From a virus (taxonomy: Duplodnaviria > Caudoviricetes): a stretch of 64,000 bases of DNA. Location of the stretch: IMG/VR virus record IMGVR_UViG_3300008262_000013. One strand, 5' to 3'. Of the stretch, positions 7,049-54,200 are shown in pieces. Under the pieces are notes generated by a model. That model had not been told where the DNA came from. It made no database searches and saw only the letters and a program-made list of their open reading frames with translations. How positions within the stretch are numbered: position 1 is the first letter of the stretch; each line of letters opens with the position of its first letter. The translations under genes were made by a program, and so were the position numbers.

Positions 7049-7056
7049 TATTTATA
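7049..7056 (-). promoter_or_regulatory. T4-type late promoter (TATAAATA) upstream of gp2
   Basis: Exact TATAAATA on the - strand, 4 nt before the gp2 ATG. Confidence 0.75.
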
Positions 7057-30653: not shown

Positions 30654-31388
30654 ATGATTGGAATTATTGGTTATGGAATGGTTGGACAAGCCGTTGAATA
30701 CGGCTTTTCCAAAACCCAAGTTTTCGTTTGTGATCCGAAATATAATCACGTAACGGTCAAAGGCCTCTGTTTATTAAATCCAGAGGCAATATTCGTTTGT
30801 GTCCCCACACCAACAGACGATACTAATTATTCATTGGTTACTTCAGTATTGAATGAAATTTTCGAGATGAACTATCAGGGAATAGTTATAGTAAAGTCCA
30901 CAATTTTGCCGCAATATCTTGAAAAATATGATATTGTGTATAACCCAGAATTTCTATCAAGATCAACCTCGAAAGAAGATTTTGTAAATCCACACTTATT
31001 AATACTTTCTGGTAAAAAATCTCAACAGGCTTTGGAACTTTATAAAAAACATTCTACCGTAGATACTGAAAATATTTTTGTAACAGATATTAATACAGCA
31101 TCATTTATAAAATACACCATGAATTCCTTTTATGCAACTAAGGTAACTTTTATGAACTCTATGTATGAGGTTGCTAAAAAAATGGGTGTCGATTATAATG
31201 AAGCTATAACTGTTCTCTCTAAACATCCATGGATGGGATCCAATCATTTCAAAGTACCTGGTCCTGATGGTAAAAAAGGATTTGGTGGGCCTTGTTTACC
31301 AAAAGACACAGAGTGTTTAGTTAAAAATTATGATGTTGAAATACTTAAAAAAGTTTTGGAATTAAATCAAAAGTTTAGAAATGAATAA
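30654..31388 (+). CDS. UDP-glucose/GDP-mannose dehydrogenase family protein (short form lacking the C-terminal domain)
   Basis: GIIGYGMVG, FVCVPTP, VKST, YNPEFL, KYTMNSFYATKVTFMN, catalytic GFGGPCLPKD. Confidence 0.9.
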   Translation: MIGIIGYGMVGQAVEYGFSKTQVFVCDPKYNHVTVKGLCLLNPEAIFVCVPTPTDDTNYSLVTSVLNEIFEMNYQGIVIVKSTILPQYLEKYDIVYNPEFLSRSTSKEDFVNPHLLILSGKKSQQALELYKKHSTVDTENIFVTDINTASFIKYTMNSFYATKVTFMNSMYEVAKKMGVDYNEAITVLSKHPWMGSNHFKVPGPDGKKGFGGPCLPKDTECLVKNYDVEILKKVLELNQKFRNE

Positions 31389-31393
31389 GTTTG

Positions 31394-31422
31394 TTGAACA
31401 GTTTTGTCAAACACTATATATT
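31394..31422 (+). promoter_or_regulatory. Possible sigma70-type promoter upstream of the first radical SAM gene
   Basis: TTGAAC-N17-TATATT in the largest intergenic gap of the cluster, followed by an AAGGAG RBS. Confidence 0.4.
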
Positions 31423-31456
31423 AGTACGTCTTTGGTTTAAATAAAAAGGAGAAAAA

Positions 31457-32563
31457 ATGGTAGTAGATATAAACGTAACAAGTATCTGCAATTTAGCTTG
31501 CACATATTGTTCCGAAGGTTTTGAATGTGGACTATCTACCGAGTTTGAAGAAAATACTTCTTTGACATTAGATAATGTTGAAGAATTTATGGCTAAAATT
31601 TCTGATCCCAAAAAAGATGTTTATTTCTGGGGTGGTGAACCATTTGTTAATTGGGATTTTTGTAAAGGTGTCATAGAAAAATTTAAACATGATCCTGGTT
31701 TTTCTTTTTTCTTTTATACAAATGGAACGTATTTAAAGAGATATTTAAAAGATTTGGTTAGAATTCACAATGAGATTCCCGGTAGATTAAAGTTGCAGGT
31801 TTCATATGATGGAAAGCCTGTAAACGACATCGCCAGAGTGACTAAATCTGGTACTCCATCGTCAGCAATGGTCAAAGCAAACTATATTGCAGCTAAAGAA
31901 GCTGGATTGAATGTTTCACTGAAATCTGTACTAACGTCTGAAAATTTCCACTTAATCTATGAAGCCTTTTTGGATGTCATAGAAATGGATAAAAATTATT
32001 TTCCAACACCAGATTTATACAGCCAATTGACAGAAGAAGAATTTATGCCTAAATTGGAAGTATTAAAGGATGGATTGAAGAAAATTGCTAAACATATTTA
32101 CGAAAATAAATTACCTCCTGAGAAGTTTGGATGGTTCCAACAATCTAGAGCTCTATGTGCAGCAGGTATAAATTACGTAAGTGTTGATTTAAACGGCGAT
32201 TTGAGTCCTTGCCATGGATGCATGTACAAAGAATCGCATTCACATAAATTAGGAAATATTTTTAAAGTTGCAGATTTGGATCAGTTGATTGAAGAAAAAT
32301 CTCAAATGTATAAGGATGCGTTGAAGAATCAACCTTTAGATTGTATGAACTGTGACAGTCAATTCTGTATGAAATGTAATGCGGCAACTTATGAAAAATC
32401 AGAAAAAGAAACATATCTAGAAAAATGGAGTGATCATACAGCAAATTGGCAAGTCTGTAAAGTATTTAAGACAAACGAGATAGTACATCACGCATTAAGA
32501 ACTGCACTAAAGAGTTATAAAAAGCCTGTAATTAAAATTCAGGCTGAACAGTGTACAGTATAA
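31457..32563 (+). CDS. Radical SAM/SPASM peptide-maturase-like enzyme
   Basis: CNLACTYC (CX3CX2C), FWGGEP; SPASM CAAG...DLSPCHGC...CMNC...CMKCNA...VC. Confidence 0.92.
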   Translation: MVVDINVTSICNLACTYCSEGFECGLSTEFEENTSLTLDNVEEFMAKISDPKKDVYFWGGEPFVNWDFCKGVIEKFKHDPGFSFFFYTNGTYLKRYLKDLVRIHNEIPGRLKLQVSYDGKPVNDIARVTKSGTPSSAMVKANYIAAKEAGLNVSLKSVLTSENFHLIYEAFLDVIEMDKNYFPTPDLYSQLTEEEFMPKLEVLKDGLKKIAKHIYENKLPPEKFGWFQQSRALCAAGINYVSVDLNGDLSPCHGCMYKESHSHKLGNIFKVADLDQLIEEKSQMYKDALKNQPLDCMNCDSQFCMKCNAATYEKSEKETYLEKWSDHTANWQVCKVFKTNEIVHHALRTALKSYKKPVIKIQAEQCTV

Positions 32564-32572
32564 GGATAATAA

Positions 32573-33697
32573 ATGTTTACATTAGAAGTAAGTGTTACTG
32601 AAAAGTGTAATCTAGGTTGTCCGTATTGTTATGTGGCAAACAGACCAACTTGGATGACGAAAGAAGTTTTTGATCAGGGTATGAAAGACCTGCCAAAATT
32701 AATGCAAAGGTCCGGTGATAAAGATTATCATGTAAGTTTTTTTGGTGGTGAACCTTTATTAAATTGGGACCTAATAACTCACGCTGTTCCTTATTTAAGA
32801 TCGGATGATAAATGTAAAGGTATTAATATCATCACAAATTTAACGATGATTGATCAAGATAAAGCTAATTATTTGAGAAATAATGGTGTTGGCGTTTCTT
32901 GGTCTTTTGATGGTATGAGTTCTAATGAGAGTAGACCTTTACTTCCACTTTTGGAAAATACTAATCCAGAAACAGGCGAATTGTTTGATGGTATACTTTC
33001 GATGTATGAATATAAGAAAGATATCATAAAGAATTTGACAAACGGATGTAAGGTCATGATATGGCCAGGAAATACAAAAGACATGAAAGAGAATTTTGAA
33101 TTTCTCTTAGATTGGGGTATAGATCATCCCGATTTTAGTATTGTTCGTGATGATGTTTGGACAGAAGATGATATAATACAGTTTAGATATGAATGTGAAA
33201 GACTTGCAGATTTTTGGATAGAAAAGATAAAATCTGGTAAACCATGTTCAGTAGGATTTTTAAAACTAGCTATTTTAGATATTCTCTATGGTTTAGTGAA
33301 AGGTAAAAGACCTTTTGGTTGTTTTGCTGGAACTAATGGTGGAGTATTGATGAGTTCTGGGGAATTCTACCCTTGCGCTAGGTTTGCATCCAAAAAAATT
33401 ATGAAAATGGATGAACAGTATAATTTTAGGTACTATCAAGACATTTTTAATCCAAAAAATTATGATAAATGTGAACCGTGTGATTTGAAACAGGTGTGTA
33501 ATGCCGGTTGTACATATTCTCAAATTATGAATGATAATAAACCATTAGATAGTATTTGTGAATTGTTCCACATATATTATGAACAAGCAATGCGAGTGGT
33601 AGATGAGTGTAAAGACGAAAGAGTTTTCCAAGATTTGGTTTTAAATTATATCGAAAATGTTGGTGTTGAAAATGAAGGTGTGGAGTGTAGGAACTAA
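32573..33697 (+). CDS. Radical SAM/SPASM peptide-maturase-like enzyme
   Basis: CNLGCPYC, FFGGEPLL; SPASM CFAG...GEFYPCARF...CEPC...VCNAGC...ICELF. Confidence 0.93.
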   Translation: MFTLEVSVTEKCNLGCPYCYVANRPTWMTKEVFDQGMKDLPKLMQRSGDKDYHVSFFGGEPLLNWDLITHAVPYLRSDDKCKGINIITNLTMIDQDKANYLRNNGVGVSWSFDGMSSNESRPLLPLLENTNPETGELFDGILSMYEYKKDIIKNLTNGCKVMIWPGNTKDMKENFEFLLDWGIDHPDFSIVRDDVWTEDDIIQFRYECERLADFWIEKIKSGKPCSVGFLKLAILDILYGLVKGKRPFGCFAGTNGGVLMSSGEFYPCARFASKKIMKMDEQYNFRYYQDIFNPKNYDKCEPCDLKQVCNAGCTYSQIMNDNKPLDSICELFHIYYEQAMRVVDECKDERVFQDLVLNYIENVGVENEGVECRN

Positions 33698-33698
33698 C

Positions 33699-34547
33699 AT
33701 GAAAATTGTTTCTTGCACCAGTCAAGATAAAATTCTTAGAATTAACTGGCATATATTAAATTGGTGTAATTTAAAATGTTCCTACTGTAATGTAAAGGAA
33801 CATTTGAGTTATGATTATAATGATAATACTCAAATTTCAAATAATTATAAATTGATTATAAGTAGATTAAAAACTATTTCTAAACCTTTTGAGATTTGTT
33901 TGACTGGTGGGGAACCAACATTACATCCCAATATCGAAGATATATTAAGTGGATTAAATGAAATTGAAAATTTAACTAAAATTTATTTTTTTACTAACTT
34001 AACTAGATCAGAAAATTTTTATAAAAATATAAAAAGTTTTTCGAAAGTTACATATTACGCATCCTTTCACCCCGAATATCACAAAGAAGATTTTTTAGAT
34101 AAGTGTAAAAATCTAAACTGTGAGGTTCATATAAGTATGATGCCTGAATATAAAAATTACATTTTAAAAATTATTGATAAGTGTAAGTTGGAGGATATAA
34201 AATTTACATTAAATTTTTTAAGAGACACAAAATATTATTCAAGTAATTTAGAAGAAGATTTTTTCGTAGAAGCTTCTACTGCTGAATCTATGATTGATAT
34301 GGATGTTTTATATGATAATGGCTTTCGAGAAAATACTACAAATTTAAGATTATTATACGATAAAAAAAATAATTTCAAAGGCTATAAATGTTTACCGGAA
34401 TCTTTTCAAATAGAATTAAATAATGTAGTTAAAAATGTTTGCACTAACGAAATTATGCCATTATCTTTAAAAGATATTACGAAAAAGGTTATTTGTCCAA
34501 AAGAAGTTTGTGAAGGTGGACTTATGATGTATCCTAAGGAAATTTAA
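33699..34547 (+). CDS. Radical SAM enzyme with short Cys-containing (twitch-like) C-terminus; start re-assigned to ATG 33699
   Basis: CNLKCSYC, LTGGEPTLHP, ASFHPE; C-terminal YKC...NVC...ICPKEVC. Confidence 0.88.
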   Translation: MKIVSCTSQDKILRINWHILNWCNLKCSYCNVKEHLSYDYNDNTQISNNYKLIISRLKTISKPFEICLTGGEPTLHPNIEDILSGLNEIENLTKIYFFTNLTRSENFYKNIKSFSKVTYYASFHPEYHKEDFLDKCKNLNCEVHISMMPEYKNYILKIIDKCKLEDIKFTLNFLRDTKYYSSNLEEDFFVEASTAESMIDMDVLYDNGFRENTTNLRLLYDKKNNFKGYKCLPESFQIELNNVVKNVCTNEIMPLSLKDITKKVICPKEVCEGGLMMYPKEI

Positions 34548-34876
34548 TGAAGAAAAATTTTAAAAGTATTGTATCTATACCTATTAAAGTTGAGATGCAA
34601 CCAGTTGAACATCAAAGCAATAAAGTTTTGACTGTTGATGATTTGTCGAAACAAATAGAAGAAGCTAAAAAGGGAAAAGCCAAAGTCGATAGTAAGTATG
34701 TAGGATTTGAACTGACTGAGAGAGGACATTTATTCGAATATAAATTTGATTATGTTAAATTTTTGGACAATATGTCATTCATAATCAAAACGGCAAAACA
34801 GCGTAAAGAAATGAATCCTAATAATGTCTATACAATGGATAAAACTAAAAGTGCTAGACGAAAAAAAGAAATATGA
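34547..34876 (+). CDS. Hypothetical protein (basic) within the radical SAM operon
   Basis: 109-aa ORF coupled by overlaps on both sides. Confidence 0.6.
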   Translation: MKKNFKSIVSIPIKVEMQPVEHQSNKVLTVDDLSKQIEEAKKGKAKVDSKYVGFELTERGHLFEYKFDYVKFLDNMSFIIKTAKQRKEMNPNNVYTMDKTKSARRKKEI

Positions 34877-35766
34877 ACGCCGAAACTTTCAAAAAAAAGT
34901 ATCCTCAAATAAATTTTTATGTAGGACATGAAACGGATAAAACTGTAACTAAAGATTCGGGAGTAAATGTATTATATTTCACAAATAAATGTAATTTAGC
35001 TTGTACATATTGTTATGAAGATTTGCCTGGTCGCCCTCCACAAATTTTGTCTAAAGAAGATATTAAAAAAAGTATCGATAGAGTTATAGAAAGAGAAGAT
35101 CCCAATAGTCAAACATTATTTGTTCTTTTTGGTGGAGAAGCTACTATGGAATGGGATAATGTTTGTTATGCCATGAATTATGCCTATACAAAAAAGAAAA
35201 ATGTTCATTTTAATTTAAACACAAATGGCATAAGATACCTAAAACAAAGTTTTATAGAGGAAACAAAAAACAATTTTTTTTATAAAAAAAACTTGTTAAG
35301 TATAGACGTTAGTTTTGACGGTATAGGAAATTCGGATAGAGTCACACACGGCGGCAAGGATTCAACTAATTTAATGATCCAAGTTTTCAGAAATTTGAGA
35401 AAAAACGCAATGAAATTTAGGATAAGATACACCATACATCACAAAAACGTTCATAATTGCTATGAAGATATGTCCAATATTATTAGATATTTTAAACCAA
35501 CCCGTCTTATAACATCCGTTGCGTGGGAAACTCTCAATAAAATTCAAATTGACTTGCTCCAAAACATGAAAGAAAGTCTCAGGAAAGATTGGATAAATAG
35601 GATAATTGATGTTCCAGTTTGTGAGTTATTTTGTGACATGTGTGATGGATGTGGTGAGAGAAAGGAAGTAAAAACTTATTTTACTGACGAGGGTAATGTA
35701 ACCACATATGGTAATTATGAGAACTCCCCGAAATTTCATGATTTTAAAGAAAAGGTAATAATATGA
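34873..35766 (+). CDS. Radical SAM enzyme with C-terminal Cys cluster
   Basis: CNLACTYC, LFGGEATM, TNG, VSFDG; C-terminal CELFCDMCDGC. Confidence 0.9.
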   Translation: MNAETFKKKYPQINFYVGHETDKTVTKDSGVNVLYFTNKCNLACTYCYEDLPGRPPQILSKEDIKKSIDRVIEREDPNSQTLFVLFGGEATMEWDNVCYAMNYAYTKKKNVHFNLNTNGIRYLKQSFIEETKNNFFYKKNLLSIDVSFDGIGNSDRVTHGGKDSTNLMIQVFRNLRKNAMKFRIRYTIHHKNVHNCYEDMSNIIRYFKPTRLITSVAWETLNKIQIDLLQNMKESLRKDWINRIIDVPVCELFCDMCDGCGERKEVKTYFTDEGNVTTYGNYENSPKFHDFKEKVII

Positions 35767-36155
35767 GCACTGATAGAGAAATTGTAATTGAAAAGTTAAC
35801 GAGTATTTCACAAAATATTAAAGAGATATCGGAATATGATGAAGGCCTCGCCAACTTAATTTGGATAGGTTTTGACACAGCTATGAGTTTAGCACAATCT
35901 ATTTCTGAAAATAATGAGAAAAAGGAACAAATTGATATTTCTGTTTACATTCAACAAATTTGTGATGCTTTGGGTGTTGATATTGAACAAATGGTTTTAT
36001 CAATTATTCAAAATAACAATACTCAAGAATCTAGTAATAAAGAGCCGGACTTGGAAACTTTAGACTTTATAACATCCGATCTTGATGACTATGAAAAGTT
36101 TTTAGCAAAAAGTTCAGCAAAAAATAATTTAGATTTTTTATCAAAGGAAATATAA
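35763..36155 (+). CDS. Hypothetical acidic helical protein directly upstream of the Cys-repeat gene
   Basis: 130-aa ORF with ATGA overlap; no motif recognised. Confidence 0.6.
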   Translation: MSTDREIVIEKLTSISQNIKEISEYDEGLANLIWIGFDTAMSLAQSISENNEKKEQIDISVYIQQICDALGVDIEQMVLSIIQNNNTQESSNKEPDLETLDFITSDLDDYEKFLAKSSAKNNLDFLSKEI

Positions 36156-36156
36156 G

Positions 36157-36765
36157 ATGGCTTTAGGTAAAATGTTTGACACTACTCTTGGAGTAGGTAC
36201 TAACACAACTCCTGCTGGTGAACATAAAAGGCTATCAATAACTATACAAGGAACTGTTGGTAGTAATGCAGTGAATTATGATCTTGCGAATGTTGTAGCT
36301 GGAGAGGATTTAATAACTAGATCGTTTTTTCAATCGCTGCTTGATAAAGCAAAAGAAGAAAATACGAGAAGGGGAGGCAGCGCCACTAAAGGTTCGTTAT
36401 CAACAACAAACATTAGAGCTGCCGACTTTAATAATATCCGAGCACTTTTTGCTGTTGCCGATTCTAGGACAAATCAAGTTTATAATGATTGGTCTGGTGC
36501 AAATGCTAATTTGCCTAATGGTCCGACAGTAAATAGTCCCACAATAACAACCTTTCCTACTACTGCTGCACCAACTGGTGTTCCAGCAGCAGTTACCACA
36601 GATCCAGCAACTCAAATTAGAGCTACAATTCTGAATTCTCTCATTAATGCTTTGAATTCTGCTGGGCAAGTTTGCACCTGTAATTGTAATTATTGTACTT
36701 GTAATTGCAATTATTGTACATGTAACTGTAATTACGCATGTACCTGCAACTGTAATTACTCCTAA
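36157..36765 (+). CDS. Protein with a C-terminal Cys-rich repeat (CTCNCNY)x4; candidate radical SAM substrate
   Basis: No Cys in the first 172 aa, then 12 Cys in the last 30 aa; AAGGA RBS; embedded among radical SAM genes. Confidence 0.8.
   Translation: MALGKMFDTTLGVGTNTTPAGEHKRLSITIQGTVGSNAVNYDLANVVAGEDLITRSFFQSLLDKAKEENTRRGGSATKGSLSTTNIRAADFNNIRALFAVADSRTNQVYNDWSGANANLPNGPTVNSPTITTFPTTAAPTGVPAAVTTDPATQIRATILNSLINALNSAGQVCTCNCNYCTCNCNYCTCNCNYACTCNCNYS
36673..36762 (+). repeat. Four 21-nt coding repeats for CTCNCNY (one Ala inserted before the fourth)
   Basis: Amino-acid identity with varied synonymous codons (tgc/tgt, acc/act/aca, aat/aac, tat/tac). Confidence 0.92.
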
Positions 36766-36776
36766 TTAAAAATATT

Positions 36777-37238
36777 ATGTTTTTTCAACTAAATCATTTA
36801 GAAGAAACCAATATGTCTTACATAAGACATTTTAATCATGGAATAAGATTGGGATCTTGGTTATTTTTGTGTTCCATCATTTTTTTAATTTATTGTCTTT
36901 TCTCTTTAAAATTTTTAGAAAACTTTGTGATAGCACGAATAAACACAATGTATCATGGATTAATGTTGCGATGGTTTGAAGATGAAACATTTAATCGTGG
37001 AAAACCAGAAAAAGATGTTTTAGAAGAAAAGAAATATAAAAAGCAGTATGTAAAATTGATCGAAGATGGAATGATAAATCCTTTCAATAAAGTTAAAATA
37101 TTTAATGGACTGTTAATTGCATCCATTACTAGTATAACACATTCTTTTATACCACAAATATTTGTGCATCATGCTGCCACCAATGTAATAAGATTATATT
37201 TTAATTATAAAATAATGGAGAAATTAAATGAAAAATGA
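36777..37238 (+). CDS. Hypothetical protein with hydrophobic helices (DUF6356-like)
   Basis: SYIRHFNHGIRLGSWLFLCSIIFLIY and SITHSFIPQIF...AATNVIRLY resemble the DUF6356 pattern; assignment tentative. Confidence 0.45.
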   Translation: MFFQLNHLEETNMSYIRHFNHGIRLGSWLFLCSIIFLIYCLFSLKFLENFVIARINTMYHGLMLRWFEDETFNRGKPEKDVLEEKKYKKQYVKLIEDGMINPFNKVKIFNGLLIASITSITHSFIPQIFVHHAATNVIRLYFNYKIMEKLNEK

Positions 37239-37632
37239 TAGAGTTGAAATTGAAGGTATTGATGCGAATACTTATGCTGGAAAAGCAATTAATGCATGTA
37301 AGTTAAAAGCAAGAGGAATTTTTGGAGATGAACTTTTAACTTTTAAACTTTTGGATTTTGTAAGTTTTTTAATGTTAAATAATGAATTTACGTCAAAAGG
37401 TTATTTTATTAGTGAACATAATAGGGAAGAAATTTATATAAAAATTATAGAAACTGGTGATATACAATTAATAAATGATTTGGAAAAATATATTAATCTT
37501 AGAGATTCTATAAAAGAATTACAAAGAAAAAAAGATGAATTTTACGATATTATTGAAAAATTAAATAATTTATCAAACTTGAATGATGAAACGAGTGTTA
37601 ATGAAATTGTAGAGTCTTATCTAAGGAGATAA
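37228..37632 (+). CDS. Hypothetical helical protein
   Basis: 134-aa ORF overlapping the upstream gene; no motif recognised. Confidence 0.6.
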   Translation: MKNDRVEIEGIDANTYAGKAINACKLKARGIFGDELLTFKLLDFVSFLMLNNEFTSKGYFISEHNREEIYIKIIETGDIQLINDLEKYINLRDSIKELQRKKDEFYDIIEKLNNLSNLNDETSVNEIVESYLRR

Positions 37633-37634
37633 AT

Positions 37635-38627: not shown

Positions 38628-38631
38628 TTCT

Positions 38632-42791: not shown

Positions 42792-42792
42792 T

Positions 42793-44678: not shown

Positions 44679-44690
44679 GGATTGATAATT

Positions 44691-45871: not shown

Positions 45872-45872
45872 A

Positions 45873-46733: not shown

Positions 46734-47526
46734 CTATGCGATAGTGTTTTCGGTTGAAAATAAAAAAAAATTAAATTACGAAAAATTGTCTATAATACTT
46801 TCAACTAGCATCAGAGAACATTTACCTGATATTGATGTGTACTGTGGTTGTTTTACAAGTAATACTATTAGTGACGAAACAAAAAAACATTTAAAAAAAT
46901 TAAATGTAAATATTCAAGAAATTGATATTTTTAACGAGAGAGATGGTGATGACTCTTTTTATTTAAGATTGTATACAAAATATTTTTTTTCCAAAACTTT
47001 ATTAAATTCTTATGATTATCTAGTTTACGTTGATGTTGACACTTTATTTTTAAAACCGTTAAACTTTGATTTTGATCCTTTAGATAATATTGTACTAGTA
47101 GAAACAATACCCAATTGGGTTAAAAAACATGAGTCGAAGAATACTTATGTTCCAGAGGGAAATTTGTATTATAATTGGATACAGATATTAAACCATAAAA
47201 ACAAATTTCTATATGATATAGATTTTTCCGATATAAGTTTTTTAGAAAGTAAAATGGCTGATAGTTTTATATCCAAAAGAATAGACAATTCTGGATTAAA
47301 ATTAATTGAACAGAATATAGGAGCCAACCACTGTTTAAAGCCTATAACAGAAAAAACACAAATAATACACTACGATGATTTGGATTATGATGGTTGTTTT
47401 ATTGATTTGGAAGATTTATATCCAGAAACTTACAAAAAATATAAATTATTAATAGAACAAATTTTAAATTTGAAAATAACCAATATTAAAGATTATTATA
47501 AAAATATAAGAGATTTATATTCATGA
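46726..47526 (+). CDS. Glycosyltransferase GT-A fold (GT8-like)
   Basis: ILSTSIREH, YDYLVYVDVDTLFL (DxD), IIHY. Confidence 0.7.
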   Translation: MYNYAIVFSVENKKKLNYEKLSIILSTSIREHLPDIDVYCGCFTSNTISDETKKHLKKLNVNIQEIDIFNERDGDDSFYLRLYTKYFFSKTLLNSYDYLVYVDVDTLFLKPLNFDFDPLDNIVLVETIPNWVKKHESKNTYVPEGNLYYNWIQILNHKNKFLYDIDFSDISFLESKMADSFISKRIDNSGLKLIEQNIGANHCLKPITEKTQIIHYDDLDYDGCFIDLEDLYPETYKKYKLLIEQILNLKITNIKDYYKNIRDLYS

Positions 47527-48206
47527 AAAAAGAAATTTTAGAATATTCTTTTGAAAAAGATGTTGCTCATATACCTTCAGCTTTATCAATGTCGGACTAT
47601 ATTGAGGAGTTGTTTAGTGAAAAATTAGTAACACCTGACGATAAAATAATAATAGGAAAACCTTTTGGAGCTCAAGCCTATTATATAATATGGAAAAAAA
47701 TGGGATATTTGGATGATATACATAAATTAAGTCCTGTTTTAAAAATGAGTGAAGTTGATTTTGTAGATTTTTCTGAAGAAACTATGGGAGATTCATTGGG
47801 TATAGCAGCAGGCATAGCTCTAACTACAGAAAAATTAGTTTGGGTAAATCTATCTGATGCAACTTTACAAATGGGACCAACACTTGAAGCAATACAGTTT
47901 ATAGGACAAAATTGTTTAAAGAATGTTTTAGTAACAGTTGATTATAATGGAACTCAAGTAACGGGGTATACAAAAGATATAATTAATACTGATCCTATCG
48001 TAGACATGTTTAGAGGATATAATTGGGAAGTATTTCATGATTTGAACAATTTTAGTATTGGTAAAAAGCCTAAAGTTTTTATTATGAAAACAATTAAAGG
48101 TAATGGAATACCAAGCATGGAAAAGGATATAAAAAAATGGCATTACAGGAAAATACAATCACAAGAAGAATTACAGTCGTTGGTGCAGGAACTTCAGGTT
48201 ATTTAA
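47523..48206 (+). CDS. Transketolase N-terminal (TPP-binding) subunit
   Basis: AHIPSALS, GDSLGIAAG, SDATLQMG (GDG-like), VDYNG.Q, TIKGNG, WHY. Confidence 0.85.
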   Translation: MKKEILEYSFEKDVAHIPSALSMSDYIEELFSEKLVTPDDKIIIGKPFGAQAYYIIWKKMGYLDDIHKLSPVLKMSEVDFVDFSEETMGDSLGIAAGIALTTEKLVWVNLSDATLQMGPTLEAIQFIGQNCLKNVLVTVDYNGTQVTGYTKDIINTDPIVDMFRGYNWEVFHDLNNFSIGKKPKVFIMKTIKGNGIPSMEKDIKKWHYRKIQSQEELQSLVQELQVI

Positions 48207-49480
48207 CTGTTTTATATTTTTGCAAAAAATATCCTGATATGCAGGTGACATGGATTTATCCAGAAGTCAACCAGCCCATAGGTGTTGGTGAAGCAACAGT
48301 ACCACAAGTTCAAAGATTTTTAGCTGAGTTGGGAGTATCTGTTCAAGATATGATATTACATTGTAATGCAAATTTAAAAATTGGAGCAATGTTTGAAAAT
48401 TGGTCACCAACACAAAAATCTTTTTTTCATCCATTTGGATCCACAGATGAAAATTGTTTGGATTTGGAGTGGTACTTAAAAAATAATCAAATTCCACCAA
48501 ATATTTTAGAAGCTTATCCCGAAACATTAGAATATATGTTGGAGAATGATGATTTTCCAGATTTTGCAACAAATTTTGATGTAAGAGAATTGTGTAAGTA
48601 CTTGGATAAAATTTTTGAAAATTTTAAAAATTTAAAAGTAATACGTAAAACTATAACAGATGTTGATGAAATTGAAGATGATCACATCATAGATGCCACA
48701 GGATTCTCCAAAACATTAATCAATAAAACTGATAAAGAAAATTTCAAAAGTATTAAACACATTATACCTAATAATAAAGCTTTTGTTTATCGAGCTGAAT
48801 ATTCCGATAAAGAGAATCAACAACAACCTTATACAACAATTACCGCGGTGACGCATGGTTGGATATGGACTATACCATTGAAAGATGTTATAACATTTGG
48901 TCACGTACATGATGATCGTTACGACACTAAACAAGAATACATAAATTTTGTGGAGTCTAGACTTGGTTACAAAATAGACGAATCTAAAATTGTTGAAGTT
49001 AAAATGATTACTGGTAGGAATATAAAACATTTTAGAAAACAAGGAAACAAGTCGATTTATTCAATTGGTTTAAGTTCTTATTTTATTGAACCTATAGAAG
49101 CTACAGGATTATATCTTGCAACTTATGGTATTAAATTATTAGATCGTCTGTTAAAAAATGAAATAACCGTGGATGAGTATAACAATGATTATAACAGAGA
49201 ATTTGATGCTGTTACAGACTTTATTACTACATATTATAAATTTTCAAAAAACTCTAATGAATATTGGGATCATTTTAAAAAATTAAATATAGAAACTCAT
49301 AGGAAAAATAATATTTTTCCGGCCAGAAGTTGGAATTTAATATTATCTGGAATGGGACAAGAAGAAAAAAAATACAAAATAAAAGCAGAACGTATAATAA
49401 AAATTAGAAAAAATAATGTAAAATATAGTGAATGGTTAAAAGAATTTCATGAGAAAAACTCTACATCAATATCTAAGTAA
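48137..49480 (+). CDS. Flavin-dependent (tryptophan-halogenase-family) enzyme
   Basis: VVGAGTSG, IGVGEAT, CNANLKIG (catalytic Lys position), GWIWTIP, FIEPIEATG. Confidence 0.9.
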   Translation: MALQENTITRRITVVGAGTSGYLTVLYFCKKYPDMQVTWIYPEVNQPIGVGEATVPQVQRFLAELGVSVQDMILHCNANLKIGAMFENWSPTQKSFFHPFGSTDENCLDLEWYLKNNQIPPNILEAYPETLEYMLENDDFPDFATNFDVRELCKYLDKIFENFKNLKVIRKTITDVDEIEDDHIIDATGFSKTLINKTDKENFKSIKHIIPNNKAFVYRAEYSDKENQQQPYTTITAVTHGWIWTIPLKDVITFGHVHDDRYDTKQEYINFVESRLGYKIDESKIVEVKMITGRNIKHFRKQGNKSIYSIGLSSYFIEPIEATGLYLATYGIKLLDRLLKNEITVDEYNNDYNREFDAVTDFITTYYKFSKNSNEYWDHFKKLNIETHRKNNIFPARSWNLILSGMGQEEKKYKIKAERIIKIRKNNVKYSEWLKEFHEKNSTSISK

Positions 49481-49928
49481 ATTAAAACATCCCGACATTT
49501 ATCTATTACATGGAGATATGTGGGGTTTCCCCACAAAAGGCAATGTAATTAATTGCGGTATACAAGAACCAAATATGGTTAATATTGCAGCTGGTCTTGC
49601 CAGTCAAGGTAAAAAAGTGATAGTATATGGTGTTGCTGGATTTGTAATTTATAGAGCTTACTCTCAAATCAAACTCAATATTAAAGATTGGGCAGAAAAT
49701 TTTGGTTCGATTATATTTGTAAATGCTGGTTATAATGGGTGTTATTCATACTGCGGTAGAGGACATCTCGTATATGATGATCATTTATTGATGAATGCTT
49801 TAGACATTCCGTTATATACTCCCGACGATTGTAGTGGTTTTATACGTACAGTAAAAGAAGGACTACAACAGAACGGAGTTCGTTTTATTCGATTGGGTTG
49901 GGATGGTGCACCATGGAAATTGCGGTAA
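49449..49928 (+). CDS. Transketolase pyrimidine-binding (C-terminal) subunit, short
   Basis: NCGIQEPNMVNIAAGLASQG, RAYSQI, GH...DD, FIRL. Confidence 0.85.
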   Translation: MRKTLHQYLSKLKHPDIYLLHGDMWGFPTKGNVINCGIQEPNMVNIAAGLASQGKKVIVYGVAGFVIYRAYSQIKLNIKDWAENFGSIIFVNAGYNGCYSYCGRGHLVYDDHLLMNALDIPLYTPDDCSGFIRTVKEGLQQNGVRFIRLGWDGAPWKLR

Positions 49929-50509
49929 CTGGACACACGGGATTTATTGGTAGAAATTTGGTCGAAGAATTTAAACGCCAAGGCTATAATCCAATTTTAA
50001 TAGACAAAAATTTTACACCAGTTAAGTGTGATAGGATATATCATTTGGCTTGTCCTGCAACTACATATCACATTACAAATAATACTATTAGTGTTATGGA
50101 TGCTATATTAGATTTAACTCGCAAAGCAATGAATATATGTAGTGATGCTTTATTTGTAAATGCTAGTTCTTTTGGCGCTGCTGATATTAATGAAAGTAAG
50201 CAAGGTGGATATAATGTTGCTAAAAGATGTATGGAAATATATTTGTCGCATTCTAAAATTAATTATATAAATTATAGAATACCTTCCGTTTATGGTCAAG
50301 ACGCCAGTACCGATTCCTTTATTAAAAGGTGTGTTTTAGGTACTGCTTACAAACCCACAAACTCCTCACAGATTTGGCCGATATCTCATGTTGATGATGT
50401 CGTTGAAGCTTTAATTAATCTTTCAGAAATTAAAATTGAATATATTACTTTGGGTGAAATATACGAACAATTTACTTCGGGAAAAAGAAATTTGATAAAA
50501 CATGAATAA
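49913..50509 (+). CDS. NAD-dependent epimerase/dehydratase
   Basis: IAVTGHTGFIG, IYHLA, YNVAK, YRIPSVYG. Confidence 0.85.
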   Translation: MEIAVTGHTGFIGRNLVEEFKRQGYNPILIDKNFTPVKCDRIYHLACPATTYHITNNTISVMDAILDLTRKAMNICSDALFVNASSFGAADINESKQGGYNVAKRCMEIYLSHSKINYINYRIPSVYGQDASTDSFIKRCVLGTAYKPTNSSQIWPISHVDDVVEALINLSEIKIEYITLGEIYEQFTSGKRNLIKHE

Positions 50510-51767
50510 TATAGAAAATATTACAGTTATTGGTGCAGGCACTACAGGTTATTTAACCGTTTTTCATTTGTGTGAAACTTATCCTAATAAAAAAATTACT
50601 TGGATTTATCCGAAAGAAAATCAACCAATCGGTGTTGGAGAAGCTATTATACCAGATGTTAGTAAATTTTTACAAAATTTTGGAGTTAAACATCAGGATA
50701 TATTAAAACATTGTAATGGAACACTAAAATTTGGAGTCTATCTGAAAGGATGGAATAAACCAGGAGAAGATTTTACTTTTCCTTTTGGTTTCGAATCTGC
50801 TAATCCTAGACACAACTCGTCCAGTCAAGATAGAATAATGAAAACTAATAAAATACCAAAAAGAATATTTGATTACCAAAACATTTCTACGCATTTTAGG
50901 GTTACCGAACTATTGGAATATCTAGACAACTATAAAAAGAAATATTCTAATTTAACTGTTATTAGAGAAAAGGTGACATTGAATGATATAAAAGACTGTT
51001 ATGATTTAATAATAGATTGCACTGGATTTGAAAGAACTGTTAGTTATATTCCAAATAATTTTAAAAACATTTCGGATAAAATACCAAATAATCAAGTTTT
51101 TCTTTTTAGACATACTTACACAGATAGGGAAAAACAATGTGTTCCTTATACCGTTGCAGAAGCAATGAATTATGGTTGGTGTTTTAATATTCCTTTAAGG
51201 AATGAATTGGCTTGCGGTTATGTACATGACGGAAAATTTGATGTTAAAGAAGAATATATTAATTATTTGGAAAAAAAGTTTAATATAAAAGTTGAACCTT
51301 CGAGTATAAAATCGTTAAAGATGGTAACTGGTAGAAATAAAATACATTTAAAAAACAATATTGTAGCTATGGGTCTTGCCTCATCTTTTATTGAACCGTT
51401 GGAATCTACAGGTTTATATTTGGTAACTAGTGCTCTTAGAAAATTGTGTGATTATATAGATAAGAAAATTACTGAAACTGAATATAATTTTTTTATTAAT
51501 GAAGAATTCGATACTATTACAGATTTTATAGTCGAACACTACAAATATTCTAAAAGAGACAATGAATATTGGAACTTTTATAAAAAAGTAAATACCAAAA
51601 AACGCACAGTTAATATATTTCCTAATTCTGGATGGGACACAATAAAAAGTGGTTTTCTCTCCGAAGTACCTAGGCCTACTGAACCCATGGATAGTAAAGA
51701 ATTAATTGAAATACATAAAGGTAAACCTTTTCATGAGTGGATATTAAACGAAGAAAATTACATATGA
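50502..51767 (+). CDS. Flavin-dependent (tryptophan-halogenase-family) enzyme, paralog of 48137-49480
   Basis: VIGAGTTG, IGVGEA, CNGTLKFG, GWCFNIP (degenerate WxWxIP), FIEPLESTG. Confidence 0.88.
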   Translation: MNNIENITVIGAGTTGYLTVFHLCETYPNKKITWIYPKENQPIGVGEAIIPDVSKFLQNFGVKHQDILKHCNGTLKFGVYLKGWNKPGEDFTFPFGFESANPRHNSSSQDRIMKTNKIPKRIFDYQNISTHFRVTELLEYLDNYKKKYSNLTVIREKVTLNDIKDCYDLIIDCTGFERTVSYIPNNFKNISDKIPNNQVFLFRHTYTDREKQCVPYTVAEAMNYGWCFNIPLRNELACGYVHDGKFDVKEEYINYLEKKFNIKVEPSSIKSLKMVTGRNKIHLKNNIVAMGLASSFIEPLESTGLYLVTSALRKLCDYIDKKITETEYNFFINEEFDTITDFIVEHYKYSKRDNEYWNFYKKVNTKKRTVNIFPNSGWDTIKSGFLSEVPRPTEPMDSKELIEIHKGKPFHEWILNEENYI

Positions 51768-52687
51768 ATAATTTGATATTAGGTGGAGCTGGTTTTATAG
51801 GACAGCACTTAACACATAAACTTTTAAAAACTAGACAACAAAGAGTTACTATAATAGATAATTTATCTACCAGTAAAATAAATTTAGATAACTTTTCTGA
51901 ATACAAAAATTTATTTAAATTTGTTGAAGGTGACATTTCCAAAATGGAAGATAAAGAACTACTCAAACATATGAGAGATCACAATAGAATTTTTCATTTT
52001 GCGGGCAGTGTTGGTGTCGAACATATTGATAAGGATCCATCAGGCACTCTTTTCAATAACAATTCTTTAACTAATAAATTAATACCATTATTTAAAGAAT
52101 CCAAGAGGCATGTAATATTTTCCAGTACCAGTGAAATTTACGGAAATGGACCCTTCAACGAAGAAGATTGTAGTAACATAGGACCTAGCAATAAGTTAAG
52201 ATGGGGATATGCAACAAGTAAATTGATGGCAGAATTTTTATTAAATGCTAGTGGTGTGCCGTATACTATTTTAAGATTTTTCAATATAGTTGGACCTGGA
52301 CAACTATCAGATTACGGTATGGTTTTACCTAAATTTATAGAAGCTGCAAAACGAAATGAAGATTTAATTGTTTATGGAACTGGTGAACAGATAAGGTGTT
52401 TTTTTCATATTGATGATGCGACAGATGCTATAATAAAATGTACCAATTTTAAAAATGAACTTTTTAATGTTGGAAATGATGAACCGATTACCATAAACAA
52501 ACTTGCCAAAAAAGTTATTAAAATAAGTGGATCTAGTAGTAAAATTGTTCACATTCCTTATGAAAAAGTTTTTAGTAAAAACCACGGTGATATACAAAAA
52601 AGAATTCCCGATATAACCAAACTCAGAGAAAAAACAAATTTCAGACCAAAGAAAAATTTGGATGATATCATAAAAGATATGTTATGA
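51764..52687 (+). CDS. NAD-dependent epimerase/UDP-glucuronate decarboxylase-like
   Basis: ILGGAGFIG, FHFAGSVGV, SSTSEIYG, RWGYATSK, LRFFNIVGP, GTGEQIRCF. Confidence 0.9.
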   Translation: MNNLILGGAGFIGQHLTHKLLKTRQQRVTIIDNLSTSKINLDNFSEYKNLFKFVEGDISKMEDKELLKHMRDHNRIFHFAGSVGVEHIDKDPSGTLFNNNSLTNKLIPLFKESKRHVIFSSTSEIYGNGPFNEEDCSNIGPSNKLRWGYATSKLMAEFLLNASGVPYTILRFFNIVGPGQLSDYGMVLPKFIEAAKRNEDLIVYGTGEQIRCFFHIDDATDAIIKCTNFKNELFNVGNDEPITINKLAKKVIKISGSSSKIVHIPYEKVFSKNHGDIQKRIPDITKLREKTNFRPKKNLDDIIKDML

Positions 52688-53328
52688 AAATAGTTTTTAT
52701 ATTTGCACATTTAGACGATGAGTCTTTTGGGCCAGCCGGAACAATATCAAAATTGTGTGAAGATAATGAAGTTACAATTGTATCTTTATGCAAAGGAAAT
52801 CGTCCAGGTAACGAACATGTTGAATCCAAAAGATTGAATTCTTTTTATAAAGTTTGTGATTATTTTGGTGCGAAACCTATAGTTTTTAATAACTCCGATT
52901 GCACTTTAACTTTAGAAAAGTGTTTGAGTGATGTTGAATTGGTTATCAACGAAATACAGCCAGAGATAGTCTTTACGAATAATATATCGGACATACATAG
53001 AGATCATAGAATAGTTTCCGAATCTGTTATGGTTGCCTGTAGACCTAAACCAAATTCTTCGGTAAAACAACTCTATATGTGCGAGATACCAGCTTCAACC
53101 GAATGGTCTATGGGTCAAATAGAGCCTATTTTTATACCAAATTATTTTGTGAATGTTGAGTATTATATGCATAAAAAGAAATTCGTATTGTCACTATATG
53201 ATACGGAAACGTATTCTTATCCTGATGCTAGATCAGAAAAAAGTATGATAGTTCTATCGGAACAAAGAGGTAAACAAGTTGGATATAATCACGCAGAATC
53301 ATTTAAGATGATATATAACCTTCAATAG
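52684..53328 (+). CDS. PIG-L/LmbE family de-N-acetylase
   Basis: FAHLDDESFG (HxDD), DIHRDH, YDTE. Confidence 0.88.
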   Translation: MKIVFIFAHLDDESFGPAGTISKLCEDNEVTIVSLCKGNRPGNEHVESKRLNSFYKVCDYFGAKPIVFNNSDCTLTLEKCLSDVELVINEIQPEIVFTNNISDIHRDHRIVSESVMVACRPKPNSSVKQLYMCEIPASTEWSMGQIEPIFIPNYFVNVEYYMHKKKFVLSLYDTETYSYPDARSEKSMIVLSEQRGKQVGYNHAESFKMIYNLQ

Positions 53329-53857
53329 AAACCCTCTCTCTACCATAAAATTCATTAATACCGTAAGACTTTAAGACGGTTTGATATAATCCATTTAAAT
53401 CGTTATTATATGGGAAACAAAACTTAACCGGAAAAATATTTAAGTTTTTATTGAACCATTCCAACATTAATTCGGTGTCCATTTTTATATGGTCTATTTT
53501 ATCTTTCAGGCTGCTGAAAAAATTCAAATTTTTGTGAAAATGTGAATGTCCTCCTATAATAACGTTTTTTCTAGTAGATAAATAACTTATCTGGTCCACA
53601 TTCATAAAATCTTCATAATTTCCTTCGAATGCTTTTTTATGGCAATTTTCGGAACTTATGAATTTTTTAGATTGTTTTCCTTTACAAATAATGTTTGTTG
53701 ATACAAAAAATATTTTTTCTGTTTCTATTTTTTCAATTTTTGGGTAATAATAGAAGTGGTTGTAAAGTCCATCATCAAAAGTTAGAACAAAATCTTTTAA
53801 TTTTGGAACTATTAAGTTTTTTTCTATTTTATGTATCATTAAAACTGGTTTGTCCAT
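53303..53857 (-). CDS. Polysaccharide deacetylase (NodB-like); start re-assigned to ATG 53857
   Basis: PVLMIH, LTFDDG, IGGHSHFH, FCFPYN. Confidence 0.85.
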   Translation of the reverse strand: MDKPVLMIHKIEKNLIVPKLKDFVLTFDDGLYNHFYYYPKIEKIETEKIFFVSTNIICKGKQSKKFISSENCHKKAFEGNYEDFMNVDQISYLSTRKNVIIGGHSHFHKNLNFFSSLKDKIDHIKMDTELMLEWFNKNLNIFPVKFCFPYNNDLNGLYQTVLKSYGINEFYGRERVSIEGYISS

Positions 53858-53861
53858 ATCA

Positions 53862-53869
53862 AATAAATA
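53862..53869 (+). promoter_or_regulatory. Possible late promoter (AATAAATA) upstream of the Fe-S carrier gene
   Basis: ATAAATA core followed by an AGGAG RBS in the 28-nt divergent gap. Confidence 0.4.
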
Positions 53870-53885
53870 TAGTAGGAGAAAATTA

Positions 53886-54200
53886 ATGCTTAATATAACT
53901 GAATCTGCTGTAAATGAAATCAAACAATATTTAGACGATGAAAACAAATACTTGAGGGTCTATGTTGAGGGTGGTGGATGTTCTGGTTTTAAATATGGTT
54001 TTGATTTTGAAGAATCTGTTTCCGAAGATGATTTTGAAATTCCTTTAGATGGTTTTTCAATTCTTGTAGACTCTTTCAGTATGCAATATTTGGAAACCGC
54101 AACTTTGAATTTCAAAGAAGATATTATGGGACACACTTTTACTATAGAAAACCCTAATGCACAGACGACCTGTGGCTGTGGAAGTAGCTTTTCGGTATAG
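53886..54200 (+). CDS. erpA: A-type Fe-S cluster carrier (ErpA/IscA/HesB family)
   Basis: LRVYVEGGGCSGFKYG, LVDSFSMQYL, NPNAQTTCGCGSSF; AGGAG RBS; the ErpA versus IscA distinction is tentative. Confidence 0.9.
   Translation: MLNITESAVNEIKQYLDDENKYLRVYVEGGGCSGFKYGFDFEESVSEDDFEIPLDGFSILVDSFSMQYLETATLNFKEDIMGHTFTIENPNAQTTCGCGSSFSV

Follow-up and report, generated by a model that had tools for sequence, protein, structure and literature searches.

A conserved fibre-associated gene island of an aquatic T4-like phage, best seen as a protein-maturation module joined to a sugar module

Why would a phage carry 23.5 kb of genes resembling secondary metabolism between its tail-fibre genes? We analysed a 64,000-nucleotide stretch (the window) of the viral record IMGVR_UViG_3300008262_000013 (Duplodnaviria; Caudoviricetes), corresponding to the minus strand of a viral contig in IMG/VR that is 96 kb long and, according to CheckV, 58% complete. 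The block in question occupies positions 30654-54200, and its genes are named here by their leftmost coordinate (for example, 32573). The original prediction described it as possibly one pathway that builds an unusual decoration and attaches it to virion proteins. Our analysis favours the view of the block as an island that is conserved, phage-specific and associated with fibre genes, composed of a protein-maturation module and a sugar module, and it contains a likely virion substrate (36157-36765) not named in that prediction. The phage probably modifies a virion protein of its own chemically, in an undescribed way. The earlier interpretation is partly supported: gene order and the likely substrate agree with it, but a single pathway does not.

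An island of two separable modules

The block contains 31 open reading frames (ORFs), 30 on the plus strand and one (53303-53947) on the minus strand. Neighbouring ORFs overlap at 21 of the 30 junctions, and the widest gap is 68 nt, in agreement with the predicted run of about 30 mostly overlapping genes with all but one in the same orientation. Radical S-adenosylmethionine (rSAM) enzymes are encoded by eight genes, as predicted (31457, 32573, 33657, 34873, 39467, 41138, 42033 and 43605); all eight proteins scored above 29.5 bits against PF04055, higher than the gathering score, and possess CxxxCxxC. There are no other rSAM genes in the 96-kb contig. Fibre genes were confirmed on both sides of the block:

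27438-30650 (+): tail fibre of 1070 aa with a C-terminal intramolecular-chaperone (IMC) domain (Pfam Peptidase_G2 IMC; PHROG tail fibre)
54249-54581 (+): small fibre-associated ORF, downstream flank
54786-60056 (+): fibre of 1756 aa, downstream flank (PHROG tail fibre)

Viral loci or contigs compared with the window are designated L001, L002 and so on, with L001 and L002 treated together. A search with the rSAM protein 39467 (hereafter the anchor rSAM) retrieved 18 viral loci at 39-82% identity. The block was colinear, from the fibre gene to the deacetylase genes, in L001/L002, L003 (a 214-kb contig), L005 (205 kb, rated complete), L012, L017 and L018, at protein identities of 25-98%. The shared order starts with the fibre gene, followed by SPASM-type rSAM genes, a Cys-repeat gene, 37228, 37635, a gene for a glycosyltransferase (GT) of GT-B type, an rSAM gene and a GT2 gene; it continues with further rSAM genes, a U32-like gene, the two halves of a transketolase with short-chain dehydrogenase/reductase (SDR) genes, and the PIG-L and CE4 deacetylase genes. 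Homologues of fibre 27438 precede the block in L001, L003, L005 and L017. In Pelagibacter phage HTVC008M, the flanks are present (VrlC-like gene, fibre gene, 54249 homologue and large fibre gene) with nothing block-like between them, and the 54249 homologue is found two genes, or about 300 bp, beyond the fibre gene that follows VrlC. The block is an insertion relative to that genome, and the comparison of gene order indicated that it moves as a unit. Fibre adjacency recurs elsewhere: the cluster follows a long-tail-fibre-like protein in L004, and VrlC-like and 1374-aa proteins in L011. When prokaryotes were represented by a single genome for each species, matches to the anchor rSAM were confined to three short aquatic contigs of metagenome-assembled genomes (MAGs); two of the three carry this cluster as well and probably represent phage sequence binned by mistake. 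The system looks phage-specific.

The two modules, module 1 (31457-37632) and module 2/3 (37635-53947), are usually linked but separable. L004, L006-L011 and L013-L016 possess only the anchor rSAM, GT-B-like, GT2, small rSAM paralogues, transketolase halves, mini-SDR, PIG-L and CE4 genes, and on one contig of this kind, rated 88% complete, the Cys-heptad pattern of module 1 was found nowhere. In module 2/3, one transketolase half (47523) is present in 14 and the GT-B-like gene 38632 in 17 of the 18 loci. The halogenases are confined to a window-type subset of loci and missing from most related clusters, the 2-oxoglutarate (2OG) oxygenase is rarer still, and the homologue of the Fe-S carrier ErpA sits within module 1 in L005. 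These optional genes and the loci devoid of module 1 point to a conserved core with optional tailoring genes, organised as two separable modules. The notion of one pathway is too strong, because module 2/3 also occurs without the Cys-repeat module, and the halogenases and the 2OG oxygenase in a subset only.

Conservation is uneven along the block. Relative to L001 and L003, identity is 97-98% for 31457 and 91-94% for 41138, compared with 36-52% for the Cys-heptad protein and 41-45% for 37635. As judged from these sequences, the enzymes appear to be kept while the body of the putative substrate and its neighbour 37635 diversify or are swapped. Where module 1 is missing, two conserved proteins always precede the anchor rSAM in its place (L004:8491-10017, L006:8382-9988 and homologues). 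The first is rich in Ser, Thr, Gly and Asn and about 200-240 aa long; the second is acidic, helical and about 300 aa long, with a WPPLLLP motif. Searches of NCBIfam, Pfam and PHROG with the L004 and L006 types gave nothing useful besides a sub-threshold Fn3 hint for the first protein (L006). They may be an alternative substrate/helper pair. Base composition also sets the block apart: G+C is 0.25-0.31 with a strongly positive GC skew (0.11-0.26) in window 30001-54000, lower than in the downstream fibre genes (G+C 0.36-0.41, skew about 0).

The Cys-heptad protein and the enzymes beside it

Module 1 consists of the following genes:

31457-32563 (+): rSAM/SPASM enzyme (PF04055; PF13186 SPASM at threshold, 21.6 versus 21.5 bits; nearest NCBIfam family PapB-like, below cut-off)
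32573-33697 (+): rSAM/SPASM enzyme, PapB-like but not equivalog (NCBIfam rSAM_PapB, E 2e-38)
33657-34547 (+): small rSAM paralogue (PF04055, CxxxCxxC)
34547-34876 (+): small conserved protein of 109 aa, syntenic in module-1 loci
34873-35766 (+): rSAM enzyme with C-terminal CxxxCxxCxxC (PF04055, Cys pattern, synteny)
35763-36155 (+): small acidic conserved protein of 130 aa, just 5' of the Cys-repeat gene in most module-1 loci
36157-36765 (+): fibre-like Cys-heptad protein of 202 aa ending in (CTCNCNY)x4, candidate substrate (sequence, homologues)
36777-37238 (+): small hydrophobic DUF6356 protein (PF19883, E 5e-9), carried only by the window and L003
37228-37632 (+): conserved partner of 134 aa (phrog_25260)

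NCBIfam, Pfam and PHROG offered nothing useful for 34547, 35763 and 37228, nor for 46726 of module 2/3; 34547 had no match at all in Pfam or PHROG.

The C-terminus of 36157 is made of three consecutive CTCNCNY heptads, A, a fourth CTCNCNY and a final S. The repeat copies differ from each other at synonymous positions only, which indicates that selection acts on the peptide. The family is large, with 28 distinct homologues in the loci compared, dozens of syntenic viral contigs, and at least 554 protein clusters in a large metagenomic protein collection, all of them annotated as hypothetical. Its members span 170-530 aa, and their N-terminal two-thirds are variable save for an ERxRRG motif and a helix before the repeat. 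In many homologues, the repeat is followed at once by SD(x)RLK...GV(M/I)AQEL and a full S74 intramolecular chaperone; PF13884 was found in about one quarter of the listed clusters and, with E 9e-7 and 29.5 bits versus a threshold of 22, in the L001 copy. Other copies keep an 11-residue stub, or nothing. The window copy is of the last kind: it gave no PF13884 match and ends at the repeat (...CNCNYS). It is therefore a chaperone-less member of the Cys-heptad family rather than an S74 protein. In the S74 homologues, the Cys array would form the C-terminal tip of a trimeric fibre after self-cleavage. A homotrimer prediction of the Cys-heptad protein, run without controls, scored 0.00 and gave no verdict.

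Some loci carry several such genes. In L012 (L012:3958-6522) and L040 (L040:7386-9443), three or four tandem Cys-heptad paralogues have different N-terminal parts and near-identical repeats, some with the full S74 domain and others with the 11-residue stub; the arrangement looks like a cassette array of alternative fibres. A degenerate relative in L017 (L017:5074-5568) has kept ERARRG, ends in CLCNTDCGGNTWCDCHNDCGCNY instead of regular heptads and adjoins two SPASM rSAM genes.

A protein of this family has been listed among the constituents of a phage particle. Campylobacter Firehammerviruses encode a 534-aa protein with the same repeat (F379_160). The Cys-heptad homologue of phage IBB_35 is gene 3-9, for which we recomputed a mass of 60,317 Da; gene 3-9 (60,318 Da) is on the published list of virion proteins from purified virions (PMC3322345 supplement).

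The Cys repeat and the SPASM-type enzymes of module 1 (31457, 32573 and 34873) were found together from both directions. The exact repeat DNA pattern identified 25 viral contigs. In nearly all of them, the three rSAM genes as well as 34547 and 35763 lie upstream, with the 37228 partner downstream; the partner lies 3' of the Cys-repeat gene or genes with at most one small ORF between. Conversely, a profile of 32573 homologues identified 78 viral loci, and an ORF with a CxCxC repeat lies within 6 kb in 55 of them, among which are almost all loci with an identity of at least 37%. These loci also show the variant repeats CPCNCNF, CACNCNF and CTCDCAY. Many of the 23-27% relatives of 32573 adjoin ORFs with (CE)n(CT)n repeats. 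In L129-L142 (for example, L129:5877), such relatives lie directly 3' of ORFs of about 190-205 aa with CECECTCTCTCTCTCTCTCTC-type repeats, which look like a second repeat grammar for this enzyme clade. In Firehammervirus F379, a 31457-like rSAM gene is located 4 kb from F379_160, beside baseplate genes; its product F379_166 is 28.5% identical to 31457.

All three SPASM-type enzymes have C-terminal Cys clusters. Their nearest curated families are the PapB-, SCIFF- and sactipeptide-type Cys cross-linking maturases, at scores far below the equivalog cut-offs: against NF047865 (PapB), 32573 reached 132 bits and 31457 and 34873 78-80 bits, versus a cut-off of 340. Features of the maturase class are nevertheless present, namely the Cys residues of SPASM/twitch auxiliary clusters and the adjacency to a Cys-rich substrate gene across lineages. 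We infer that the SPASM enzymes of module 1 modify the Cys array; the chemistry would most likely be thioether cross-linking.

The resemblance to maturases of peptides that are synthesized by ribosomes and modified post-translationally (RiPPs) thus includes CxxxCxxC plus SPASM Cys residues, the best NCBIfam matches and an adjoining Cys-repeat substrate gene. In contrast to known RiPP systems, the enzymes here are encoded by phages and score far under equivalog cut-offs, the candidate substrate is a fibre-like structural protein of 170-530 aa (S74 family) instead of a leader-core peptide, and no RiPP recognition element (RRE) domain, peptidase or exporter was detected for the block. The likeness to self-cleaving, endosialidase-type S74 fibres and tailspikes lies in the homologues of 36157 that end in S74 right after the repeat, whereas the window copy has lost the chaperone. 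We know of no S74 fibre with a Cys-heptad tip or dedicated rSAM neighbours. A literature search on the repeat strings and the cluster found no paper describing them.

Sugar-type genes of module 2/3

A truncated dehydrogenase gene lies ahead of module 1, and ErpA closes the block; between 37635 and 53947 are the genes of module 2/3:

30654-31388 (+): truncated UDP-glucose/GDP-mannose dehydrogenase-like protein (Ugd-like), 244 aa (PF00984, E 4e-18; partial PF03721)
37635-38627 (+): variable 330-aa protein, sulfotransferase-like as a lead only (atlas feature matches)
38632-39510 (+): compact glycosyltransferase-like protein of GT-B fold, forming a pair with the rSAM gene that follows (AF2 model, pLDDT 91; Foldseek)
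39467-40483 (+): anchor rSAM enzyme of module 2 (PF04055, E 2e-17)
40477-41163 (+): GT2 glycosyltransferase, 228 aa (PF00535, E 3e-10; nearest solved structure heparosan synthase B)
41138-42040 and 42033-42791 (+): two small rSAM paralogues (PF04055, CxxxCxxC)
42793-43626 (+): U32-like TIM-barrel protein with conserved Cys/His (predicted fold)
43605-44678 (+): rSAM enzyme (PF04055, E 6e-13)
44682-45293 (+): 2OG-Fe(II) oxygenase, accessory (PF13759, E 1e-12); elsewhere only in L012 and L052
45290-45871 (+): mini-SDR-like protein, 193 aa (BLASTP versus 49898, E 7e-5; common TGxxGF and YNxxK motifs)
45873-46733 (+): second U32-like paralogue, 35% identical to 42793, with the same invariant Cys/His
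46726-47526 (+): protein with a weak GT8 hint (PF01501, E 0.017, below cut-off; phrog_23758)
47523-48206 (+): transketolase-like thiamine pyrophosphate (TPP) domain subunit (PP), truncated (PF00456, E 3e-8; 6yak, E 8e-13)
48137-49480 (+): flavin-dependent halogenase 1, GWIWTIP intact (PF04820, E 6e-65)
49449-49928 (+): transketolase-like PYR domain subunit, truncated (PF02779, E 3e-6; 6yaj, E 6e-6)
49898-50509 (+): mini-SDR, 203 aa (PF01370, E 4e-14)
50502-51767 (+): flavin-dependent halogenase 2, degenerate GWCFNIP (PF04820, E 1e-61)
51737-52687 (+): extended SDR of the UDP-hexose 4-epimerase/UDP-GlcA decarboxylase clade (PF01370, E 2e-38)
52684-53328 (+): PIG-L/LmbE-type N-deacetylase (PF02585, E 8e-16; 2ixd, E 2e-6)
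53303-53947 (-): CE4 polysaccharide deacetylase-like protein, sole minus-strand gene (PF01522, E 1.4e-4, just under cut-off)
53850-54200 (+): A-type Fe-S carrier ErpA/IscA (PF01521, E 1e-20)

Pfam matches bore out the two halogenases, the 2OG oxygenase, the two deacetylases and ErpA that had been predicted; homologues of the CE4 protein occupy the equivalent position in L003, L006, L014, L015 and L017. For other enzymes, the family assignment stood and the size did not. The predicted UDP-Glc dehydrogenase is a remnant with the central domain and part of the N-terminal domain only; lacking the C-terminal domain, it falls outside UDP-glucose 6-dehydrogenase proper, and its length (244-245 aa) is conserved in L001, L003 and L012. 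Among the three predicted SDR epimerases, one is full-length (51737; best named solved matches UDP-Glc 4-epimerase and UXS1, E 1e-33 to 1e-28), and two are mini-SDRs of about 200 aa, 45290 being recognisable solely by comparison with 49898. The PP (47523) and PYR (49449) halves of the split transketolase are separated by the halogenase gene 48137. They are 227 and 159 aa long, compared with 309 and 341 in the split-chain enzyme, and the C-terminal domain is absent; the pair is thus a TPP-enzyme relative rather than a bona fide transketolase. Two to three glycosyltransferases had been expected, and GT2 40477 and 38632 qualify, with 46726 as a weak candidate.

No sequence family matched 38632. 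Foldseek matches of its model were all GT-B proteins; 262 of 292 residues aligned with PimA (Z 16.0 by VIA, root-mean-square deviation 3.4), and 38632 is predicted to be a GT-B glycosyltransferase-like protein. Its Z scores were 14-16 to GT4 enzymes directed at proteins or lipids and 13.5 to the DNA alpha-glucosyltransferase (AGT) of T4. For 37635, atlas features matched sulfotransferase clusters at 0.94-0.95, but few features were shared; the protein has a conserved IIRNPS motif, no Pfam match, and nothing relevant in a profile search of PDB sequences.

The two U32 proteins of the original prediction are U32-like by predicted fold of 42793 and by paralogy, below the Pfam threshold. Against PF01136, 42793 scored 12.9 versus 22.4 bits (E 0.067) and 45873 had no match, and a profile search of PDB sequences found nothing for either. 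The AF2 model of 42793 has a pLDDT of only 78, and its seven best matches in AFDB/Swiss-Prot, as well as ranks 9-11, are U32 proteins (MJ1657, TrhP1/2, TrhP, UbiU and RlhA), with E 4e-6 to 5e-4 (top seven to 1.3e-4) and TM scores of 0.51-0.57. C38, C176, C180 and H186 are invariant in both paralogues, and a fourth Cys (EECW) is missing in 45873. With O2-independent U32 hydroxylases (UbiU/UbiV, TrhP, RlhA), 42793 shares the predicted TIM-barrel fold; the existence of two paralogues parallels the UbiU-UbiV heterodimer, and a distant N-terminal Cys plus a Cys cluster recall, without matching, the layout of UbiV. In contrast, the block proteins lie under the Pfam threshold, and their spacing CX3C...H differs from the published CX12CX3C or CX6CX15CX3/4C.

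Both halogenases match PF04820 and show GxGxxG and the CNxxLK context of the catalytic Lys, and WxWxIP is degenerate in copy 2. Copy 1, with its motifs intact, belongs to the same Pfam family as the viral halogenases of HTVC008M, cyanophages and Campylobacter phages ('PrnA'-like) and is 27-30% identical to them; unlike those, the block has two copies, one of them splitting the transketolase pair. To our knowledge, the natural substrate is known for no viral halogenase of this group.

Taken together, the clade of SDR 51737, PIG-L, CE4, GT2 and the GT-B-like protein suggest tailoring of a UDP-sugar followed by its transfer. An Arn-like pathway (L-Ara4N), to which the Ugd-like protein, a UXS/ArnA-like SDR, GT2 and CE4 might have belonged, was considered and dropped: aminotransferase and formyltransferase are absent, and the Ugd-like protein is truncated.

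Function, expression signals and genomic setting

ATAAATA, which resembles a late-promoter motif, is strongly depleted in the window (13 found versus 55 expected), as is TATAAATA (1 versus 16). ATAAATA is located before structural genes and, within the block, at conserved offsets:

35593-35599 (+): inside 34873, 170 nt before 35763; position kept in L001, L003 and L012
39197-39203 (+): inside 38632 (offset +565), 5' of the anchor rSAM gene; offset unchanged in L001 and L005
42691-42697 (+): inside 42033, about 100 nt before 42793; same offset in L001 and L003, close in L017

The offsets in 34873, 38632 and 42033 are kept in loci whose proteins have diverged to 37-70% identity. For ErpA, the true start is probably the ATG at 53886, because ATAAATA at 53863 is followed by a GGAG ribosome-binding site and then this ATG. 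Late-type sites (TATAAATA or ATAAATA) elsewhere in the window are at 7049-7056, 7485, 14294, 19582 and 60053. Two of them lie only 4-5 nt before start codons of structural genes (14294 for gene 14305 and 19582 for gene 19594), which would imply late transcripts almost without a leader, or a signal that serves both as a promoter and in translation. A scan for sigma-70 promoters and terminators gave counts equal to those of shuffled controls.

With gene content, synteny, the co-occurrence of enzymes and Cys repeat, the fibre-like repeat protein and the predicted folds of 38632 and 42793 established, we infer the chemistry, the late timing and the acceptor of the block as follows. Module 1 would be the maturation system of a small virion fibre: three SPASM rSAM enzymes, two small helpers and the downstream partner 37228 would act on the (CTCNCNY)x4 tip of 36157-36765, where radical H-abstraction would lead to thioether-type cross-links or another cysteine-centred modification. 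Module 2/3 would tailor a nucleotide sugar by means of the SDRs, PIG-L, CE4, the TPP pair, a group of four to five small rSAM enzymes and two putatively Fe-S-binding, U32-like proteins, joined in some genomes by the halogenases and the 2OG oxygenase; the TPP pair, rSAM, U32-like, 2OG oxygenase and halogenase proteins would contribute C-C, hydroxyl or halogen chemistry. The GT-B-like and GT2 enzymes would transfer the sugar to a virion protein, the same fibre or a neighbour, and ErpA would supply Fe-S clusters. A virion acceptor is suggested by the fibre adjacency in several lineages, the link to module 1, the strand and packing in common with fibre genes and the late-type motifs. Late-expressed maturation and decoration of a virion fibre is the explanation we favour tentatively, at a little short of an even chance. 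A more specific version is held with less confidence, as one possibility: the rSAM/SPASM set rewrites or cross-links the S74-exposed (CTCNCNY)n, and a sugar built by rSAM, U32-like and TPP enzymes, possibly branched, hydroxylated or halogenated, is attached to the particle, as a widespread, undescribed class of virion modification in freshwater and other aquatic T4-like phages and partly in Campylobacter Firehammerviruses.

Several observations weigh against fibre maturation and decoration. Module 2/3 occurs without any Cys-repeat gene in L004- and L006-type contigs (one 88% complete), and the repeat protein cannot then be its obligate acceptor. Truncation affects the Ugd-like protein as well as the two transketolase halves, and these may be unable to carry out the textbook reactions. 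No rSAM enzyme reaches an equivalog cut-off, and the late timing is predicted from a motif. Campylobacter phages place the GT-B-like gene and its adjacent rSAM gene beside ribonucleotide reductase (RNR) genes, not structural genes. Characterised U32 proteins act on RNA pyrimidines or quinones; such activities, and a GT-B fold common with T4 AGT (Z 13.5), leave room for DNA modification. Mass-spectrometric coverage of IBB_35 gene 3-9 was just 2.6% (PMC3322345).

Among the rival explanations, module 2/3 might, during infection, remodel glycans of the host envelope (lipopolysaccharide (LPS), capsule or S-layer glycan), which could serve to exclude superinfection or to keep progeny from adsorbing to debris, for instance, with module 1 as an unrelated neighbour. 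UDP-sugar SDRs, GT2, PIG-L and CE4 are typical envelope-glycan enzymes, hyperplastic regions of T4-like cyanophages carry LPS-type genes, module 2/3 is found apart from the Cys-repeat gene, and L006-type loci have an upstream cytidylyltransferase-domain protein and no fibre gene within 10 kb. We consider this unlikely, since Pfam/NCBIfam scans of the block revealed no flippase, polymerase, ligase or polyprenol-phosphate transferase, the GT2 is short (228 aa), and the block adjoins fibre genes in several lineages; with the anchor rSAM on just three aquatic MAG contigs, two with the same cluster, the genes do not look borrowed from a host glycan locus. Hypermodification of phage DNA, in which U32-like proteins would hydroxylate a pyrimidine and the GT-B-like enzyme attach the tailored sugar (compare glucosyl-hydroxymethylcytosine of T4), would account for the fold matches to TrhP and RlhA (RNA pyrimidine C5 hydroxylases), the fold in common with AGT and the RNR neighbourhood of the Firehammervirus 38632 homologue and its adjacent rSAM gene. 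It appears rather improbable: the block lies amid fibre genes in the same orientation and contains late-type motifs, whereas known phage DNA-modification genes are early or middle (T4); the same scans showed no hydroxymethylase, kinase or other known base-modification enzyme; and 38632 is closer to protein- or lipid-directed GT4 enzymes than to AGT. One published observation also counts for it, that DNA preparations of IBB_35 inhibited Taq and phi29 polymerases (PMC3322345).

The block could also be a mosaic of unrelated auxiliary genes gathered at a permissive hypervariable site without a common function. The halogenases, the 2OG oxygenase, DUF6356 and ErpA do come and go or shift position between loci, and identity to L001/L003 changes from gene to gene between 41 and 98%, a sign of recombination. 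Such a mosaic is hard to reconcile with a core of more than 15 genes kept in order across loci at 25-50% protein identity, or with an rSAM/Cys-repeat association judged statistically overwhelming from both directions, and we give it slightly less weight than DNA modification. Least probable of all, in our estimate, is a diffusible small molecule (aminoglycoside- or nucleoside-like, or a released RiPP) directed at the host, competitors or defence systems. The set of rSAM, PIG-L, SDR, glycosyltransferase, halogenase and TPP enzymes resembles antibiotic gene clusters, and the SPASM enzymes are nearest to RiPP maturases; yet the block showed no gene for a transporter, a leader peptidase or resistance, the Cys-repeat protein (170-530 aa, S74-type fibre family, virion-detected) is no short precursor peptide, and most related clusters are without halogenases.

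Fibre maturation and decoration, if true, would mean RiPP-style chemistry on a structural virion protein, and a fibre tip modified by rSAM enzymes would represent a novel type of structure for receptor binding or stabilisation. Apart from proteolysis and simple glycosylation, hardly any chemical maturation of phage virion proteins is known to us. Some mycobacteriophages have virion glycosylation cassettes, and these, like cyanophage hyperplastic islands, combine sugar-nucleotide and glycosyltransferase genes beside structural genes, with variable content. They differ from the island in being without multiple rSAM, U32-like and TPP enzymes and a dedicated Cys-repeat protein; moreover, the gene order of the island is conserved, unlike that of the hypervariable cyanophage regions. 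A literature search that combined rSAM with fibre, transketolase and halogenase brought up nothing but cyanophage papers of a general kind. Firehammerviruses (CP220, CPt10, CP21, IBB_35 and F379) are closer in content, with homologues of the Cys-heptad protein, the 31457-type rSAM, 38632 and the halogenase; their genes are, however, scattered beside RNR or baseplate genes instead of forming one fibre-flanked block, and no split transketolase, U32-like, PIG-L and CE4 set was seen with the searches used. The proposed maturation would explain why Campylobacter group II phages, which are T4-like myoviruses, have so many rSAM genes: 11-12 of them, five of which form an interchangeable module, were described in 2010 without a functional assignment (PMC2853527). 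Firehammerviruses can be cultured, and the sugar module would give access to new chemistry of rSAM, U32-like and mini-transketolase enzymes.

The phage itself is a T4-like myovirus of aquatic type. Upstream, the block is preceded by a region full of baseplate and tail PHROGs, and a gp6-like wedge protein is 40-43% identical to homologues in HTVC008M, Methylophilales phage Melnitz and cyanomyoviruses. Near-identical DNA was absent from cultured phages; the sole match was a 63-bp stretch in Campylobacter phages, corresponding to the Cys repeat. In 20 sequencing runs from 16 studies, a 10-kb part of the block was present near-verbatim; most of these runs had lake or freshwater labels and several were labelled 'fungus metagenome', and no RNA run was listed for that part. 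We read the phage as common in freshwater, and a marine origin was rejected on account of these labels despite the kinship with pelagiphages and cyanophages.

Beyond the block, a giant structural protein of 2079 aa (DUF4815/VrlC-like) is encoded just 5' of the fibre gene (20946-27185); its L053 homologue is 76% identical, and HTVC008M has a counterpart. At the other end, 60405-63998 encodes a protein of at least 1198 aa that runs off the window and contains ten alanine-zipper-like stretches; it is probably another coiled-coil fibre. A 617-aa protein (954-2807, minus strand) combines a large N-terminal part with a C-terminal amidase/endolysin-type domain (residues about 410-590).

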